Assembly (NCBI RefSeq): GCF_044324785.1
Contig: NZ_CP172127.1
From: Escherichia coli
GTDB taxonomy: Bacteria; Pseudomonadota; Gammaproteobacteria; Enterobacterales; Enterobacteriaceae
Reading direction: 5' to 3' (one strand)
Length of the DNA: 64,000 nucleotides
Shown: piece after piece, positions 2,650-64,000 of the stretch
Layout: the number at the start of each line of letters is the position of its first letter
Numbering within the stretch: position 1 is the stretch's first letter
Translations under genes and position numbers: made by a program
Notes under the pieces: model-generated
What the model was told of the DNA's origin: nothing
What the model saw: only the letters and a program-made list of their open reading frames with translations
The model's database searches: none

Positions 2650-3828
2650 CTACAACATGACCTCGCTATTTACATCGCGATACTCTTTTGGCGTCGTGTC
2701 ATATGCTTTTTTAAAAACAGAGTAGAAATATTGCAGCGATGGATAACCGCACATTTGCGATATCTCATTGATCGACAAGGTGGTTGAAATCAGCAGACTG
2801 CGCGCTTTCTCCAACTTCTCGGCATGAATCATGGCATGGATGGTTTCACCCACCTCTTCTTTAAAACGCTTCTCAAGATTGGAGCGCGAGATCCCGACCG
2901 CATCCAGTACCTGATCCACTTTAATCCCTTTACAGGCGTGATTACGAATGTAATGCATGGCCTGAATAACGGCGGGATCTGTCAGCGAGCGGTAATCTGT
3001 TGAGCGCCGTTCAATGACGCGAACTGGTGGGACCAAAATCCGCTGTAGCGGCATTTCTTCTTTATCTAATAATCGATGCAACAGTTTTGCCGCCTGATAG
3101 CCCATTTGCCGCGCGCCCTGAGCGACCGAAGAAAGGGCGACACGCGACAGATAGCGGGTCAGTTCTTCGTTATCGATGCCAATCACGCATAATTTTTCCG
3201 GTACGGGAATATGTAGATGTTCACATACTTGCAGAATATGCCGCGCCCGGGCGTCAGTAACGGCAATAATCCCGGTTTGCGGTGGCAGCGTTTGTAGCCA
3301 GTCTGCCAGCCGATTTTGCGCGTGTTGCCAGTTCTCTGGCGCGGTTTCTAATCCCTGATAAACCACTCCGCGATACTTTTCTTCGGCGACAAGCTGACGA
3401 AATGCATATTCGCGTTCAGTGGCCCAACGTTTACCGCTTGATTCCGGAAGACCATAAAAAGCAAAGCGGTTAACGCCTTTCTCTTTTAAATGCAAAAATG
3501 CGCTTTCAACCAGCGCATAGTTATCGGTGGCAATGTAATGAACGGGTGGGTAACTTTCTGCAAGGTGATACGAGCCGCCAACCCCAACAATGGGGACGTC
3601 GACATCAGCCAGCGCTTGCTCGATCTGTTTGTCGTCGAAGTCGGCAATGACGCCATCTCCTAACCAGTCCTTGATTTTATCAATGCGGGCGCGGAAATCT
3701 TCTTCAATGAAAATATCCCATTCCGATTGTGACGCCTGTAAATATTCTCCTACGCCTTCTACTACCTGCCGGTCATAGGCTTTATTGGCATTGAACAGTA
3801 ATGTGATGCGGTGACGTTTAGTAAACAT
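2650..3828 (-). CDS. xylR: xylose operon transcriptional activator XylR (AraC family)
   Basis: 392-aa ORF; C-terminal AraC-type HTH region, N-terminal sugar-binding domain; adjacent to xylH. Confidence 0.95.
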   Translation of the reverse strand: MFTKRHRITLLFNANKAYDRQVVEGVGEYLQASQSEWDIFIEEDFRARIDKIKDWLGDGVIADFDDKQIEQALADVDVPIVGVGGSYHLAESYPPVHYIATDNYALVESAFLHLKEKGVNRFAFYGLPESSGKRWATEREYAFRQLVAEEKYRGVVYQGLETAPENWQHAQNRLADWLQTLPPQTGIIAVTDARARHILQVCEHLHIPVPEKLCVIGIDNEELTRYLSRVALSSVAQGARQMGYQAAKLLHRLLDKEEMPLQRILVPPVRVIERRSTDYRSLTDPAVIQAMHYIRNHACKGIKVDQVLDAVGISRSNLEKRFKEEVGETIHAMIHAEKLEKARSLLISTTLSINEISQMCGYPSLQYFYSVFKKAYDTTPKEYRDVNSEVML

Positions 3829-3905
3829 GGTTCTTTTCCTGCTGAATCATGCAAAAACTCAACACCGGTAATACGTTACCGGCTTTGAGAAAATTTTTAT
3901 CAAAA

Positions 3906-5087
3906 TCAAGAACGGCGTTTGGTTGCGGAGTCCATCCATACTGCCAGCAACAGAATCGCACCTTTAACGATATACTGCCAGAAGGTCGGTACATCCATCA
4001 TACTCATGCCGTTATCCAGTGAAGCCATGATGAATGCCCCCATTACCGCTCCGGCCACGCTCCCGACGCCGCCTGCCAGACTGGTGCCGCCAATCACACA
4101 TGCGGCAATTGCGTCCAGTTCGGCGATATTTCCCGCAGAAGGTGAACCAGCGCCAAGTCGAGAACTGAGGATTAATCCGGCGATAGCGACCATTAATCCG
4201 TTAATAGCGAATACGGCAAGTTTGGTGCGTTCAACGTTAATCCCGGAGAGACGTGCTGCTTCCAGATTGCCGCCGATGGCATAAATGCGTCGTCCAAATG
4301 CCGTCCGCGTTGCCATAAACATTCCGCCGAGTAACAGCAACGTCAGCAGCAGAACGGGAGTGGGAACGCCACGGTAATCGTTCAACAGCCAGATTGCGCC
4401 TAAGACGATAATCGCCGTTAATGACTGGCGACCGACAACTGCGGTAGAGGCCGGAGACTGCAAACCCAAAGCCTGACGGCGCATTCTTCCGCGCCATTGC
4501 CAGCCAACAAAAGCCATTAAGCCAAGCGCGCCAATGATGAAGCCGGTGCTGGCGGGTAGATAGCTTTGCCCGATTTGTGACATCGCGGCGCTGGTGGGGG
4601 AAACAGTCGTGCCGTTGGTGATGCCAATGAGTATGCCGCGAAATGCCAACATGCCCGCGAGGGTGACAATAAATGAAGGGACTTTGCGGTAAGCGACCCA
4701 CCATCCGTTCCAGGCACCGAGAAGCAGTCCCAGAACCAAAGTCACAATGATGGTAAGTGGCAAAGGCCAGCCTAGCCAGACGTCACAAATCGCCGCGACG
4801 CCACCTAATAGCCCCATCATTGAGCCGACGGAAAGGTCGATTTCAGCAGAAATTATGACGAACACCATTCCTACTGCGAGGATGCCGGTAATCGCGGTCT
4901 GGCGTAACAGGTTGGAGACGTTACGGGCGCTTAAGTAGGCACCATCGGTGGTCCAGGTAAAGAACAGCATGATTGCGATGATAGCTGCAATCATCACGAA
5001 GACCTGCAAATTCAGTGACTTCAGCCCGGAAAAGCCACCGGATGTCGGTACGGCCAATTTCACTTCAGACGGATTGCTTTTCGACAT
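3906..5087 (-). CDS. xylH: xylose ABC transporter permease XylH
   Basis: 393-aa polytopic membrane protein ORF; gene order xylF-xylG-xylH. Confidence 0.95.
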
Positions 5088-25568: not shown

Positions 25569-25682
25569 CGTGGCAGCCACAATTAAAACCATTGAGTAAC
25601 AACAGTTGTGGCGATAGTGGGTGCTAACTTACCAAATAATAAATTTGGTGAATAATTGTCACGTCATTCATTCCTGAACTAA

Positions 25683-25713
25683 GGCATTTCATTCCGTTCT
25701 GATGGCATTTCAT
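25683..25713 (+). promoter_or_regulatory. YpdB (PyrR) response-regulator binding site: direct repeat GGCATTTCAT-N11-GGCATTTCAT in the yhjX promoter
   Basis: Exact 10-bp direct repeats at 25683-25692 and 25704-25713 separated by 11 nt, about 85 bp upstream of the yhjX ATG; matches the recalled YpdB motif. Confidence 0.7.
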
Positions 25714-25796
25714 GCCGTTTTTCCCCAGGCATAAAGTGCACTTCGTTATGGTTGTCGGCAGAGATTTTTCCTTTTTATTACTGCAGGAATACTGCC

Positions 25797-27005
25797 ATGA
25801 CACCTTCAAATTATCAGCGTACCCGCTGGCTGACACTCATCGGTACTATCATTACCCAGTTTGCGCTGGGGTCGGTTTATACCTGGAGCTTGTTTAATGG
25901 CGCGCTTTCCGCCAAGCTGGATGCGCCGGTAAGCCAGGTCGCTTTCTCTTTCGGCTTGTTAAGTCTGGGGCTGGCAATTTCATCTTCTGTTGCGGGCAAA
26001 TTGCAGGAACGTTTTGGCGTTAAACGCGTCACTATGGCTTCCGGCATTTTGCTGGGATTAGGCTTCTTCCTGACAGCGCATTCTGACAACCTGATGATGC
26101 TGTGGTTAAGCGCCGGTGTGCTGGTCGGTCTGGCGGATGGCGCGGGTTACCTGCTGACGCTCTCTAACTGCGTGAAGTGGTTCCCGGAGCGTAAAGGTCT
26201 GATCTCCGCGTTCGCTATCGGTTCTTATGGTCTGGGTAGCCTGGGGTTCAAATTTATCGACACGCAGCTGCTGGAAACGGTGGGTCTGGAAAAAACATTT
26301 GTGATTTGGGGAGCGATTGCGCTGGTGATGATTGTTTTCGGCGCAACGTTAATGAAAGACGCACCAAAACAGGAAGTGAAAACCAGCAATGGTGTGGTGG
26401 AGAAAGATTACACGCTGGCAGAGTCGATGCGTAAACCGCAGTACTGGATGTTAGCGGTAATGTTCCTGACTGCCTGCATGAGCGGCCTGTACGTGATTGG
26501 GGTAGCGAAAGATATCGCCCAAAGTCTGGCACACCTTGATGTGGTTTCCGCAGCTAATGCAGTCACTGTTATTTCCATCGCCAACCTTTCAGGTCGTCTG
26601 GTTCTGGGGATACTGTCTGACAAAATCGCCCGTATCCGTGTTATCACCATTGGTCAGGTGATTTCGCTGGTGGGTATGGCGGCCCTGCTGTTTGCACCAT
26701 TGAATGCAGTGACGTTCTTTGCAGCGATTGCCTGCGTGGCGTTTAACTTTGGCGGCACTATCACGGTGTTCCCGTCACTGGTCAGTGAGTTCTTCGGCCT
26801 CAATAACCTGGCGAAAAACTACGGTGTGATTTATCTCGGTTTCGGTATCGGCAGCATTTGTGGGTCGATTATCGCCTCACTGTTTGGCGGCTTCTATGTG
26901 ACCTTCTACGTGATTTTCGCCCTGCTGATTCTGTCACTGGCGCTTTCTACGACCATTCGCCAGCCAGAGCAGAAAATGTTGCGTGAGGCGCATGGCTCCC
27001 TTTAA
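25797..27005 (+). CDS. yhjX: pyruvate-inducible MFS transporter YhjX
   Basis: 402 aa from MTPSNYQRTRWLTLIGTIITQFALG...; 12-TM MFS-like. Confidence 0.92.
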   Translation: MTPSNYQRTRWLTLIGTIITQFALGSVYTWSLFNGALSAKLDAPVSQVAFSFGLLSLGLAISSSVAGKLQERFGVKRVTMASGILLGLGFFLTAHSDNLMMLWLSAGVLVGLADGAGYLLTLSNCVKWFPERKGLISAFAIGSYGLGSLGFKFIDTQLLETVGLEKTFVIWGAIALVMIVFGATLMKDAPKQEVKTSNGVVEKDYTLAESMRKPQYWMLAVMFLTACMSGLYVIGVAKDIAQSLAHLDVVSAANAVTVISIANLSGRLVLGILSDKIARIRVITIGQVISLVGMAALLFAPLNAVTFFAAIACVAFNFGGTITVFPSLVSEFFGLNNLAKNYGVIYLGFGIGSICGSIIASLFGGFYVTFYVIFALLILSLALSTTIRQPEQKMLREAHGSL

Positions 27006-38392: not shown

Positions 38393-40072
38393 TTATTGCG
38401 GGTAAGGTACCCAGTCGCCGCCATTCAGGCGAACGTACGGTTTATCCTGGTATTGAATAACTACTGCATTTGAGTTCTCGGAGACCGGTGCTGTTTGTGG
38501 CAACCCACTGGTGAGTTTTTTCCAGTCAACATTGTCGTCGGAGAAAATCTTGCCATCAAGAACGCGAACCACCAGATCGGAGATAGCCAGGAAGCTGCTC
38601 GGTTGGTCGATGACAATCGGTGCCCCCTGATGTGGTGCCTTCATGCCGAAGAATTTCACCCCAACGGGGACGTCTGTGATAGACGGGCTGGGGATATCAC
38701 GTAGGCCAGATACCTGCATTCTGTCGCCCTTCAGCGCGCCACCGTGTTCCGGCACCACTACCACCATCACTTTACGACCCGATTTCTCCAGTTCAGTAAA
38801 GAAGGCGTCCAGCTCATCAAAGAATTTCTGCGCTCGCGCTTTGTAATCCGCTGTTTTGCTGACGCCCGGATAATGGTTGCCGTCATGCAGTGGAAGCGTG
38901 TTGTAGAACGTGGCACTACGGCTGTTTTTATCTTTTTCGGTAACGTCCAGCCAGCGGTTAAGCACGGCGGTATCGTCATAAACCGGCGAACCATCAAAGC
39001 CCAGCAAAATAACCGGCAGATTTGTTTGATCCATCAATTCGGTCTGCATGCCGCCATTTTCGCGAACTTCTTTCAAAAAACCGCCGAACTGGCCGTTATG
39101 TCCCATCATCAGGTGCTGGGTAAAGCCCAGTTTCGACAGGTTATCAAACAGATAGCAGTCGTTATTTGCCGGTTGATACAGATTAGTGTGCGAAGTCTGC
39201 CCGCAGCTGGCGCGCAGTAAACGGATCGCCGCCGGGCCACTGTAGGAGGTGGCGGAGTTAAAGTTCTTGAACTCAATATCGAAATGCGACCACAGCGGAT
39301 GCGACATCAACCCGGCGGCTTCAATATCCGACCAGGAAAGCGAACAAATATTAATCATCAGTAGTTCAAATGGCTGAGCATCAGCGGGCAGCGAAGACGG
39401 GAAGGTCGATTTACGTTTCGCCTCTGCGTTATAGAAATTATTCAGCCAGGCGTTAAGGTTCGCCGTTGTTGGCGGTGCAGTTTGTGCGGGCATATCACCC
39501 ACTACCGGTGCGCCACCCGTCGCGGCAACGGTTGCCGCTGCGTTACCACCCGTCGTTGTTACAGTGGTCGTCGGTTGACCGGCAGGCCACAAGGAGAAAC
39601 TTGGTCCCGCCAGGGTAAGTACGTTCAGCCATAGCAGAATGGCAACCACAAAAACGGTAATGCGAATCCATTGTGACAGGAATAACCAGGCCACTAATAA
39701 AACAAAAATGGCCCCAATCATCTGCCAGTTAATAAAGCGTGTGACAAGGTCGATTAAATAATCGGTACTGAACCCCGCCACCTGCGAACCCTGGCTCATT
39801 ATGCTTTCCGGGCCAGGCAACCAGGTGTCATGCCAGAACAAAGCAAAGCCGATCGGCAGGGCAATCCAGTGGCGTAAGCGATGCAGGCTGTAGCGCGGAA
39901 TGGGCATCAGCAGAAACGCGGCAAACACCAGATTGAGGAGCGGATGGAAGTTAAGATATCCCGCCCACAACAGGCCGAACTTAACCAGAAAATAGAAGTT
40001 CCAGCCGGAAAGGCCGCGCCAGTATTGCCAGAGGGAAGAAGGCATGGCGGTATTTTGCGTAAATTGAGTCAT
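38393..40072 (-). CDS. bcsG: cellulose biosynthesis protein BcsG (phosphoethanolamine transferase)
   Basis: 559-aa [39 protein letters not shown]... Confidence 0.93.
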
Positions 40073-49130: not shown

Positions 49131-52100
49131 ACATATTCACGCTTTCCCTCGGGCTGGCCGTCATGCCGATGGTCGAGGCAGCACCAACCGCTCAGCAACA
49201 GTTGCTGGAGCAAGTTCGGTTAGGCGAAGCGACCCATCGTGAAGACCTGGTGCAACAGTCGTTGTATCGGCTGGAACTTATTGATCCGAATAACCCGGAC
49301 GTCGTTGCCGCCCGTTTCCGTTCTCTGTTACGTCAGGGCGATATTGATGGCGCGCAAAAACAGCTCGATCGGCTGTCGCAGTTAGCGCCGAGTTCAAATG
49401 CGTATAAATCGTCGCGGACTACGATGCTGCTTTCCACGCCGGATGGTCGTCAGGCACTGCAACAGGCAAGATTGCAGGCGACGACTGGTCATGCAGAAGA
49501 AGCTGTGGCGAGTTACAACAAACTGTTCAACGGTGCGCCGCCGGAAGGTGACATTGCTGTCGAGTACTGGAGTACGGTGGCGAAAATTCCGGCTCGCCGT
49601 GGCGAAGCGATTAATCAGCTAAAACGCATTAATGCGGATACGCCGGGCAATACGGGCCTGCAAAACAATCTGGCGCTATTGCTGTTTAGTAGCGATCGCC
49701 GTGACGAAGGTTTTGCCGTCCTGGAACAGATGGCGAAATCGAACGCCGGGCGCGAAGGGGCCTCTAAAATCTGGTACGGGCAGATTAAAGACATGCCCGT
49801 CAGCGATGCCAGTGTGTCGGCGCTGAAAAAATATCTCTCGATATTTAGCGATGGCGATAGCGTGGCGGCTGCACAATCGCAACTGGCAGAACAGCAAAAA
49901 CAGCTGGCCGACCCTGCTTTCCGCGCTCGTGCGCAAGGTTTAGCGGCGGTGGACTCTGGTATGGCGGGTAAAGCCATTCCCGAACTACAACAGGCGGTGC
50001 GGGCGAACCCGAAAGACAGTGAGGCTCTGGGGGCGCTGGGCCAGGCGTATTCTCAGAAAGGCGATCGCGCCAATGCGGTGGCGAATCTGGAAAAAGCCCT
50101 CGCCCTGGATCCGCACAGCAGCAACAACGACAAATGGAACAGTCTCCTGAAAGTAAACCGCTACTGGCTGGCGATCCAGCAGGGCGATGCTGCGCTGAAA
50201 GCCAATAATCCTGACCGGGCAGAACGCCTGTTCCAGCAGGCGCGTAATGTCGATAACACCGACAGCTATGCAGTGCTGGGGCTGGGCGATGTGGCGATGG
50301 CGCGCAAAGATTATCCCGCCGCTGAACGCTATTACCAGCAGACGCTGCGTATGGACAGTAGCAACACTAACGCCGTGCGCGGGCTGGCGAAGATTTACCG
50401 CCAGCAGTCGCCAGAAAAAGCCGAAGCGTTTATCGCCTCGCTCTCTACCAGTCAGCGGCGCAGCATTGATGATATCGCACGCAGCCTGCAAAACGACCGT
50501 CTGGCACAGCAGGCAGAGGCACTGGAAAAGCAGGGCAAATGGGTGCAGGCGGCAGCACTTCAGCGGCAACGACTGGCGCTGGACCCCGGCAGTGTATGGA
50601 TTACTTACCGACTTTCACAGGATCTCTGGCAGGCCGGACAACGCAGCCAGGCTGATACATTAATGCGCAATCTGGCACAGCAGAAGCCGAACGACCCGGA
50701 GCAGGTTTACGCTTACGGGCTGTATCTCTCTGGCCATGACCAGGACAGAGCGGCGCTGGCGCATATCAACAGCCTGCCGCGCGCGCAGTGGAACAGCAAT
50801 ATTCAGGAACTGGTTAATCGCCTGCAAAGCGATCAGGTGCTGGAAACCGCTAATCGCCTGCGAGAAAGCGGCAAAGAGGCAGAAGCGGAAGCGATGCTGC
50901 GCCAGCAACCGCCTTCCTCGCGTATTGACCTCACGCTGGCTGACTGGGCGCAGCAGCGACGTGATTACACCGCCGCCCGCGCTGCTTATCAGAACGTTTT
51001 GACGCGGGAGCCAACTAACGCCGATGCCATTCTTGGTCTGACGGAAGTGGATATTGCTGCCGGTGACAAAGCGGCGGCACGTAGCCAGCTGGCGAAGCTG
51101 CCTGCCACCAATAACGCCTCGCTGAACACTCAGCGGCGCGTGGCGCTGGCACAGGCGCAGCTTGGCGATACCGCAGCGGCGCAGCAGACATTTAATCAGT
51201 TGATCCCGCAGGCAAAATCTCAGCCACCGTCGATGGAAAGCGCGATGGTGCTGCGCGACGGTGCGAAGTTTGAAGCACAGGCGGGCGATCCAAAGCAGGC
51301 GCTGGAAACCTACAAAGACGCCATGGTCGCATCCGGTGTGACCACGACGCGTCCGCAGGATAACGACACCTTTACCCGGCTGACCCGTAACGACGAGAAA
51401 GATGACTGGCTGAAACGCGGCGTGCGCAGCGATGCAGCGGACCTCTATCGCCAGCAGGATCTTAACGTCACCCTCGAGCACGATTACTGGGGTTCGAGCG
51501 GCACCGGTGGTTACTCCGATCTGAAAGCGCACACCACTATGTTGCAGGTGGACGCGCCGTATTCTGACGGGCGGATGTTCTTTCGCAGTGATTTCGTCAA
51601 TATGAACGTCGGCAGTTTCTCCACTAATGCCGATGGTAAATGGGATGACAACTGGGGCACCTGTACATTACAGGATTGTAGCGGCAACCGCAGCCAGTCG
51701 GATTCCGGTGCCAGCGTGGCGGTCGGTTGGCGAAATGACGTCTGGAGCTGGGATATCGGCACCACGCCGATGGGCTTCAACGTGGTGGATGTGGTCGGCG
51801 GCATCAGTTACAGCGATGATATCGGGCCGCTGGGTTACACCGTTAACGCCCACCGTCGGCCCATCTCCAGTTCTTTGCTGGCCTTTGGCGGGCAAAAAGA
51901 CTCCCCGAGCAATACCGGGAAAAAATGGGGCGGCGTGCGTGCCGACGGCGTGGGGCTAAGCCTGAGCTACGATAAAGGTGAAGCAAACGGCGTCTGGGCA
52001 TCGCTTAGCGGTGATCAGTTAACCGGTAAAAATGTCGAAGATAACTGGCGCGTGCGCTGGATGACGGGCTATTACTATAAGGTCATCAACCAGAACAATC

Positions 52101-62168: not shown

Positions 62169-64000
62169 ATGAGGAAGCGAACGATGAGCAAGGCAGGCAA
62201 AATAACCGCTGCGATTTCAGGGGCTTTCTTGTTGTTGATTGTCGTGGCGATCATTTTGATTGCAACTTTTGACTGGAATCGACTCAAACCGACCATCAAC
62301 CAGAAAGTCTCTGCGGAGTTGAATCGTCCGTTCGCTATCCGTGGCGATCTGGGCGTGGTGTGGGAGCGACAAAAACAAGAAACTGGCTGGCGCAGCTGGG
62401 TGCCGTGGCCCCATATACACGCGGAAGACATCATTCTCGGCAACCCACCAGATATTCCCGAAGTCACAATGGTGCATTTGCCACGCGTAGAGGCAACGCT
62501 GGCACCGTTGGCGCTGCTGACCAAAACGGTCTGGCTACCGTGGATCGAACTGGAGAAGCCCGACGCACGCCTGATTCGCCTCTCTGAAAAGAACAATAAC
62601 TGGACCTTTAATCTCGCCAACGATGACAACAAAGACACGAATGCAAAGCCGTCGGCATGGTCGTTTCGGCTGGATAATATTCTGTTCGATCAAGGGCGGA
62701 TCGCCATTGATGACAAAGTAAGCAAAGCGGATCTGGAAATTTTTGTTGATCCGTTAGGCAAGCCGCTGCCGTTCAGCGAAGTTACTGGATCGAAAGGTAA
62801 AGCGGATAAAGAAAAGGTGGGCGATTACGTTTTTGGCCTGAAGGCGCAGGGACGTTATAACGGTGAACCGCTCACGGGTACGGGAAAAATAGGCGGTATG
62901 CTGGCGCTGCGTGGCGAAGGGACGCCGTTTCCGGTACAGGCTGATTTTCGCTCTGGTAACACCCGTGTTGCTTTTGATGGCGTTGTGAATGACCCAATGA
63001 AGATGGGTGGTGTCGATTTACGGCTTAAATTTTCTGGCGATTCGCTGGGTGATCTCTATGAACTGACGGGCGTTCTGCTGCCCGATACCCCGCCGTTTGA
63101 AACGGATGGTCGGCTGGTAGCGAAAATCGACACTGAAAAATCGTCGGTCTTTGATTATCGCGGTTTTAATGGGCGCATTGGCGATAGCGATATCCACGGT
63201 TCTCTGGTCTACACCACCGGCAAGCCACGACCAAAACTGGAAGGTGATGTTGAGTCGCGGCAATTGCGGCTGGCAGATTTAGGGCCGTTAATTGGCGTTG
63301 ATTCCGGGAAAGGAGCTGAAAAGTCGAAACGGTCTGAACAGAAGAAGGGTGAAAAAAGCGTTCAGCCTGCGGGCAAAGTGCTGCCTTATGACCGCTTCGA
63401 AACCGATAAATGGGACGTCATGGATGCCGATGTTCGCTTCAAAGGGCGGCGCATTGAGCATGGTAGTAGCCTGCCGATTAGCGATCTTTCAACTCATATC
63501 ATCCTCAAAAATGCTGACCTGCGCCTGCAACCGCTGAAATTTGGCATGGCGGGCGGCAGCATTGCGGCGAATATTCATCTGGAAGGTGATAAAAAACCGA
63601 TGCAAGGGCGGGCAGATATTCAGGCTCGTCGGCTGAAACTGAAAGAACTGATGCCCGATGTAGAACTGATGCAGAAGACGCTGGGGGAAATGAACGGTGA
63701 CGCGGAACTACGCGGTAGCGGTAACTCGGTGGCGGCGCTTTTAGGCAACAGTAACGGCAACCTGAAACTGTTGATGAATGACGGGCTGGTGAGCCGCAAC
63801 CTGATGGAGATTGTCGGGCTGAATGTCGGCAACTACATTGTCGGTGCGATATTTGGTGACGATGAGGTGCGGGTGAACTGCGCGGCGGCGAATCTGGATA
63901 TTGCCAACGGTGTGGCGCGTCCGCAGATTTTTGCTTTTGATACTGAGAATGCGTTGATCAATGTTACCGGCACGGCAAGTTTTGCTTCGGAGCAACTGGA
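62169..64000 (+). CDS. yhjG: AsmA-family protein YhjG, N-terminal ~610 codons (continues beyond window end)
   Basis: Open frame from ATG 62169 (MRKRTMSKAGKITAAISGAFLLLIVVAIILIA...) with no stop to the window end; not in the ORF track because it is unterminated. Confidence 0.85.
   Translation, partial: MRKRTMSKAGKITAAISGAFLLLIVVAIILIATFDWNRLKPTINQKVSAELNRPFAIRGDLGVVWERQKQETGWRSWVPWPHIHAEDIILGNPPDIPEVTMVHLPRVEATLAPLALLTKTVWLPWIELEKPDARLIRLSEKNNNWTFNLANDDNKDTNAKPSAWSFRLDNILFDQGRIAIDDKVSKADLEIFVDPLGKPLPFSEVTGSKGKADKEKVGDYVFGLKAQGRYNGEPLTGTGKIGGMLALRGEGTPFPVQADFRSGNTRVAFDGVVNDPMKMGGVDLRLKFSGDSLGDLYELTGVLLPDTPPFETDGRLVAKIDTEKSSVFDYRGFNGRIGDSDIHGSLVYTTGKPRPKLEGDVESRQLRLADLGPLIGVDSGKGAEKSKRSEQKKGEKSVQPAGKVLPYDRFETDKWDVMDADVRFKGRRIEHGSSLPISDLSTHIILKNADLRLQPLKFGMAGGSIAANIHLEGDKKPMQGRADIQARRLKLKELMPDVELMQKTLGEMNGDAELRGSGNSVAALLGNSNGNLKLLMNDGLVSRNLMEIVGLNVGNYIVGAIFGDDEVRVNCAAANLDIANGVARPQIFAFDTENALINVTGTASFASEQL

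Follow-up and report, generated by a model that had tools for sequence, protein, structure and literature searches.

The pair of GGCATTTCAT repeats that lies upstream of yhjX in this Escherichia coli DNA is, with high confidence, the known YpdB (PyrR) operator of that gene, through which its expression responds to pyruvate. No observation made here speaks against this identification. The operator is already in the literature, which makes the finding correct but ordinary. Fried et al. 2013 is reportedly the primary paper on the YpdB sites in the yhjX promoter of E. coli K-12. The sole step past the published account is the reading of a further upstream repeat, labeled R0, as a candidate element of the operator, and this may perhaps already be contained in Fried et al. 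2013 as a 'flanking region'.

The repeat pair and its match to the published operator

A motif search of the window, meaning the whole 64-kb stretch of DNA that was analysed, finds GGCATTTCAT exactly twice, at positions 25683-25692 (site A) and 25704-25713 (site B), with both copies on the + strand and embedded in the sequence ...CACGTCATTCATTCCTGAACTAAGGCATTTCATTCCGTTCTGATGGCATTTCATGCCGTTTTTCC... The 11-nt spacer at 25693-25703 sets a period of 21 bp, and the copies are phased direct repeats rather than a head-to-tail arrangement. Site A starts 114 nt and site B ends 83 nt upstream of the yhjX ATG (25797). The preliminary description, which reported two identical 10-bp direct repeats spaced by 11 nt about 85 bp upstream of yhjX, is therefore exact in its coordinates and accurate in the distance it gave. 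The repeat unit is in fact longer than 10 nt, as GGCATTTCAT-T/G-CCGTT is identical at 15 of 16 positions between the A and B copies. The features of the region, all on the + strand, are listed below.

25660-25717, +: equivalent of the K-12 DNase I-protected stretch (native part of the SPR oligo); 57 of 58 bases match the oligo in Table 1 of PMC4847170
25662-25674, +: R0, upstream phased repeat CGTCATTCATTCC, 21 bp before site A; a candidate element, marked by its conservation
25683-25692, +: site A, GGCATTTCAT, high-affinity YpdB site (PMC4847170); the conserved unit reaches 25695 (TCC)
25693-25703, +: A-B spacer, 11 nt; first five bases TCCGT conserved, remainder variable
25704-25713, +: site B, GGCATTTCAT, low-affinity YpdB site, filled only after A (PMC4847170); the conserved unit reaches 25716 (GCC)
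25717-25721, +: conserved T-tract GTTTT directly 3' of site B; mean information 1.72 bits
25747-25752, +: candidate -10 hexamer TATGGT, from the conserved TAnnnT
25785-25788, +: Shine-Dalgarno AGGA, inside the conserved tGCAGGAnnACTGCC
25797-27005, +: yhjX CDS, 402 aa, the regulated gene, identified by TIGR00890 and by identity to K-12

A profile search places the product of the downstream reading frame in the oxalate/formate antiporter family of MFS transporters (TIGR00890, E = 1.1e-143). It is identical to K-12 YhjX at 401 of 402 residues, which upholds the earlier naming of the gene as yhjX, and it sits in yhjY-yhjX-eptB synteny, an arrangement shared by 5,403 complete E. coli genomes, in which the gene is annotated as yhjX. 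The product of 25797-27005 is named differently by NCBI PGAP, as 'L-lactate MFS transporter' (NF049980; score 343 bits, cut-off 320).

YpdB is known to bind a direct repeat of GGCATTTCAT in PyhjX, and the two copies were named sites A and B (Behr et al. 2016, PMC4847170). The SPR oligo used in that work is stated to span every DNase I-protected nucleotide, and its native part, CGCGTCATTCATTCCTGAACTAAGGCATTTCATTCCGTTCTGATGGCATTTCATGCCG (PMC4847170 Table 1), contains the same 31-mer as the window; the YpdB motif given in the preliminary description is thus the published one. Of the 58 bases in this native part, the window shares 57. The sole difference is an A for G at 25661, at the 5' limit of the protected stretch and in an alignment column that varies among species, and from 25662 to the yhjX ATG the window is identical to K-12 at every base. 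The window therefore contains what distinguishes the YpdB operator: two GGCATTTCAT copies, the 11-nt spacer, the location in the yhjX promoter and the match to the protected sequence. Compared with the PyhjX sites of K-12, the window has the same motif, spacer length (11 nt), flanks, distance to yhjX and yhjY-yhjX-eptB context; the differences are the single base at 25661 and the host strain, which here is not K-12. The RefSeq record of MG1655 now names ypdA and ypdB as pyrS and pyrR.

The site also has the general layout of LytTR-type sites, defined as two direct or inverted repeats of 9-11 nt, 11-13 nt apart, upstream of a core promoter (PMC4847170). The same layout of two direct repeats of 9-11 nt, 11-13 nt apart, is found at the AgrA sites of Staphylococcus aureus P2/P3, the structural paradigm for the LytTR domain, where two regulator molecules are bound and the DNA is bent (as summarised in PMC4847170). 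The AgrA sites differ from the yhjX operator in their unrelated consensus and in their signal, a quorum-sensing peptide rather than pyruvate. The site of BtsR (YehT) in the yjiY/btsT promoter shares the architecture of the yhjX operator: its direct repeats are phased at 21 bp and precede the gene of a pyruvate transporter. BtsR belongs to a paralogous LytS/LytTR system of pyruvate sensing that differs in gene, regulator and pyruvate threshold (PMC5552118). It is extremely unlikely that a regulator other than YpdB, such as BtsR, is the main protein bound to the repeats. The BtsR site of PyjiY has a different motif and a 13-nt spacer, with the oligo copies ACCGCTTA and ACCACTCA starting 21 nt apart, and the PyjiY oligo served as control DNA in the same study (PMC4847170). 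The reported cross-talk between the BtsR and YpdB systems runs from kinase to regulator and not at the DNA.

A bare pair of exact 10-mers within 30 nt is unremarkable in itself, with five such pairs in the window against a mean of 1.5 in shuffles. The weight of the A/B pair accordingly comes from its identity to the published motif and from its conservation, not from the repeat alone. That this pair is a functionless chance occurrence has a probability close to nil: the count of five against 1.5 is compatible with it, but all 20 specified bases agree with the published site, only the repeats are conserved across the 80 species, and a composite two-motif pattern with up to three mismatches allowed matches only this site in the window and nothing in 100 shuffles. 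Conservation and the published binding data together refute this reading.

Four other exact direct repeats of 10-11 nt with short gaps occur in the window, at 63644-63672, 50815-50861, 39513-39555 and 3938-3981 (for example two copies of AGAACTGATGC with an 18-nt period). As the shuffles give 1.5 such pairs, these four are probably due to chance.

Conservation and promoter architecture

A protein-anchored search retrieved 80 yhjX loci, giving 78 distinct sequences from 80 species, with Escherichia, Citrobacter, Enterobacter, Buttiauxella, Kluyvera, Lelliottia, Kosakonia, Klebsiella oxytoca and other genera represented. The two motifs and the 11-nt spacer are present in all 80 of these Enterobacteriaceae loci, 67-92 nt before the ATG. 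Together with the identity to K-12 from 25662 onwards, this bears out the earlier statement that the site is conserved and intact. Conservation of the motif has also been published, along with a yhjX-lux reporter from E. coli that was inducible by pyruvate in three of five tested species (PMC5552118). An alignment anchored on A and B displays three phased conserved blocks rather than two, with the following mean information per segment.

25638-25657: far upstream, 0.17 bits
25662-25674: R0, nGtCATTCATtCC, 1.70 bits (measured over 25663-25674)
25675-25682: spacer R0-A, 0.45 bits
25683-25695: A, gGCATTTCATTCC, 1.87 bits
25696-25703: spacer A-B, 0.65 bits
25704-25716: B, nGCAnTTCATGCC, 1.70 bits
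25717-25721: T-tract, 1.72 bits

Positions 2-13 of site A are nearly invariant in the 78 sequences, and position 1 is G in 50 of them and T in 28. At site B, positions 1 and 5 vary among species.

Downstream of the repeats, 79 of the 80 loci have a TAnnnT at a distance of 42 or 43 nt from the first base of B; in the window it is TATGGT (25747-25752). This hexamer is likely to be the -10 element, in which case B, A and R0 would be centered near -50, -71 and -92. A simple scan for the sigma-70 consensus did not call TATGGT and found no good -35, which is as expected for an activator-dependent promoter. Two other candidates were rejected. A sigma-70 site at 25629-25656, a single weak match no better than those in shuffles, lies upstream of the activator sites, and CATAAA/TAAAGT at 25729-25736, considered as the -10, is not conserved among species. 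Around the Shine-Dalgarno, tGCAGGAnnACTGCC (25782-25796) is conserved in most species and allows a short GCAG/CUGC stem. An RNA hairpin at this point was considered as a possible CsrA site and set aside, as the fold of the 5' UTR is no more stable than that of shuffled sequences (z = -0.40).

The two-site mechanism and the third phased repeat

In K-12, external pyruvate is the signal for the kinase YpdA/PyrS, which then phosphorylates YpdB, and for the K-12 sequence both the binding of phospho-YpdB and the pyruvate-dependent induction of yhjX have been shown (PMC4847170, PMC5552118, PMC9765748). In uropathogenic E. coli (UPEC), the kinase BtsS likewise signals to YpdB (PMC9765748). The phosphomimetic variant YpdB-D53E binds as monomers, with an affinity of 1.2 nM and slow on and off rates at site A and an affinity of 21 nM and fast on and off rates at site B; mutation of A abolishes all YpdB-D53E binding, and mutation of B leaves a single binding event (PMC4847170).

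Because the operator DNA is identical to that of K-12, the same YpdB mechanism is taken to operate in this strain. By this sequence identity, one activated YpdB monomer would bind site A (25683-25692) at about 1 nM, and once A is occupied a second monomer could bind site B (25704-25713) at about 20 nM with fast association and dissociation, both binding steps having been shown in K-12. Under the model proposed by the authors of PMC4847170, the sites would fill in sequence, A before B, occupied B would recruit RNA polymerase, and rapid release from B and then from A (the 'AB-BA' mechanism) would produce pulsed yhjX expression.

The two-site model leaves the conservation of R0, which equals that of A and B, unexplained. 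R0 keeps the 21-bp phase, has TTCATTCC in common with site A, falls within the published DNase I-protected stretch and is as conserved as site B (1.70 bits for both over the 78 sequences). Eight of its 13 positions are conserved in at least 75 of the 78 sequences (25663, 25667-25671 and 25673 in 77 of 78; 25665 in 75 of 78). At three core positions it departs consistently from A and B, reading GTCA in place of GCAT. Its role may be that of a weak YpdB site acting cooperatively, of an element that bends the DNA or of a binding site for a different factor.

It is tentatively suggested, as a possibility that falls short of being probable, that the yhjX operator is tripartite and that R0 acts as its third element, binding either YpdB cooperatively or a partner protein, and is left out of the 'AB-BA' model. 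A related and more specific version, in which full induction needs R0, either as a weak third YpdB site that fills cooperatively once A is occupied or as a bending site, is a serious possibility but less than probable. This version would extend the best explanation without replacing it. It draws on the phase of R0, the TTCATTCC shared with site A, the conservation equal to that of B, the location inside the protected stretch and the report that flanking nucleotides influence expression in vivo (PMC4847170). Against it, the A-mutant SPR oligo keeps both R0 and B yet displays no binding of YpdB-D53E, from which it follows that R0 does not bind this protein alone, and only two binding modes, rather than three, emerged from the interaction-map analysis (PMC4847170). 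The GTCA core of R0, as opposed to GCAT in A and B, would also permit recognition by a different protein.

Inspection by eye of the PyjiY footprint oligo (PMC4847170 Table 1) reveals three phased copies as well, GCCGCTCA, ACCGCTTA and ACCACTCA, whose starts are separated by 20 and 21 nt. A three-repeat layout may thus be shared by the paralogous BtsR system.

Variation within E. coli and the state of the circuit

The 228-bp intergenic region was found in 5,420 of 5,426 complete E. coli genomes at 92-98% identity, and the 31-mer site, either whole or minus the first one or two end bases, in 5,386 of the 5,426. Among 60 evenly spaced genomes from those 5,386, the full 31-mer is present in 40 and a match from base 2 only in 19. 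Site A varies at its first base: roughly a third of the complete E. coli genomes, UTI89 among them, carry TGCATTTCAT; aligned examples are clone D i2, CE10 (in which site B is GGCATATCAT) and WP7-S17. In UTI89, induction of the native yhjX transcript persists and depends on btsS and ypdB (PMC9765748). This comparison uses the RT-qPCR of the native UTI89 gene, and the UTI89 lux reporter, which was made by a K-12-based group, is set aside. As yhjX remains inducible in UTI89 with the T variant, the first motif base of site A is dispensable. The exact identity of the A and B copies is a feature of the K-12 type and is no requirement.

A disrupted operator is found in E. coli DX6, in which an IS1 lies inside site B with a 9-bp duplication of TGGCATTTC (DX6 locus 3139-3906, corresponding to window positions 25703-25711) and pushes site A about 770 bp away from site B and the promoter. 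Given the dependence of B on A, YpdB-dependent induction should be lost in this strain.

In the window, the operator, the candidate -10, the Shine-Dalgarno and the yhjX reading frame are all intact. The genes ypdA and ypdB are absent from these 64 kb (best tblastn E = 4). As they lie outside the window, the state of the circuit is judged by proxy from strain N3, the closest complete E. coli genome in RefSeq, which is 100% identical in the yhjX region and 99.0-99.8% identical in flanking regions. Over large flanking queries, most complete E. coli genomes are at most about 98% identical to the window. In N3 both ypdA (565 aa) and ypdB (244 aa) are intact and encode proteins 100% identical to those of K-12. 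By this route, the YpdA/YpdB-yhjX circuit is likely to be functional in this strain, as the preliminary description had expected. That the site is intact and the circuit nonetheless broken, through loss or mutation of ypdA or ypdB elsewhere in the genome, is very unlikely. Such a break is conceivable in that the two genes lie beyond the window and N3 is not an exact match, but both are full length and K-12-identical in N3, and neither the operator, the -10 candidate nor the yhjX frame has decayed.

The comparative data show which motif positions tolerate change, and they yield a sharper consensus for annotation, consisting of three phased units of nG[C/T][A/C]nTTCAT[T/G]CC followed at a fixed distance by TAnnnT. 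The main value of the finding is correct annotation, in that the site marks yhjX as being under pyruvate control by YpdA/YpdB (PyrS/PyrR). The literature ties this circuit to nutrient scavenging, to acid tolerance of UPEC via serine deamination and to adaptive gentamicin resistance.
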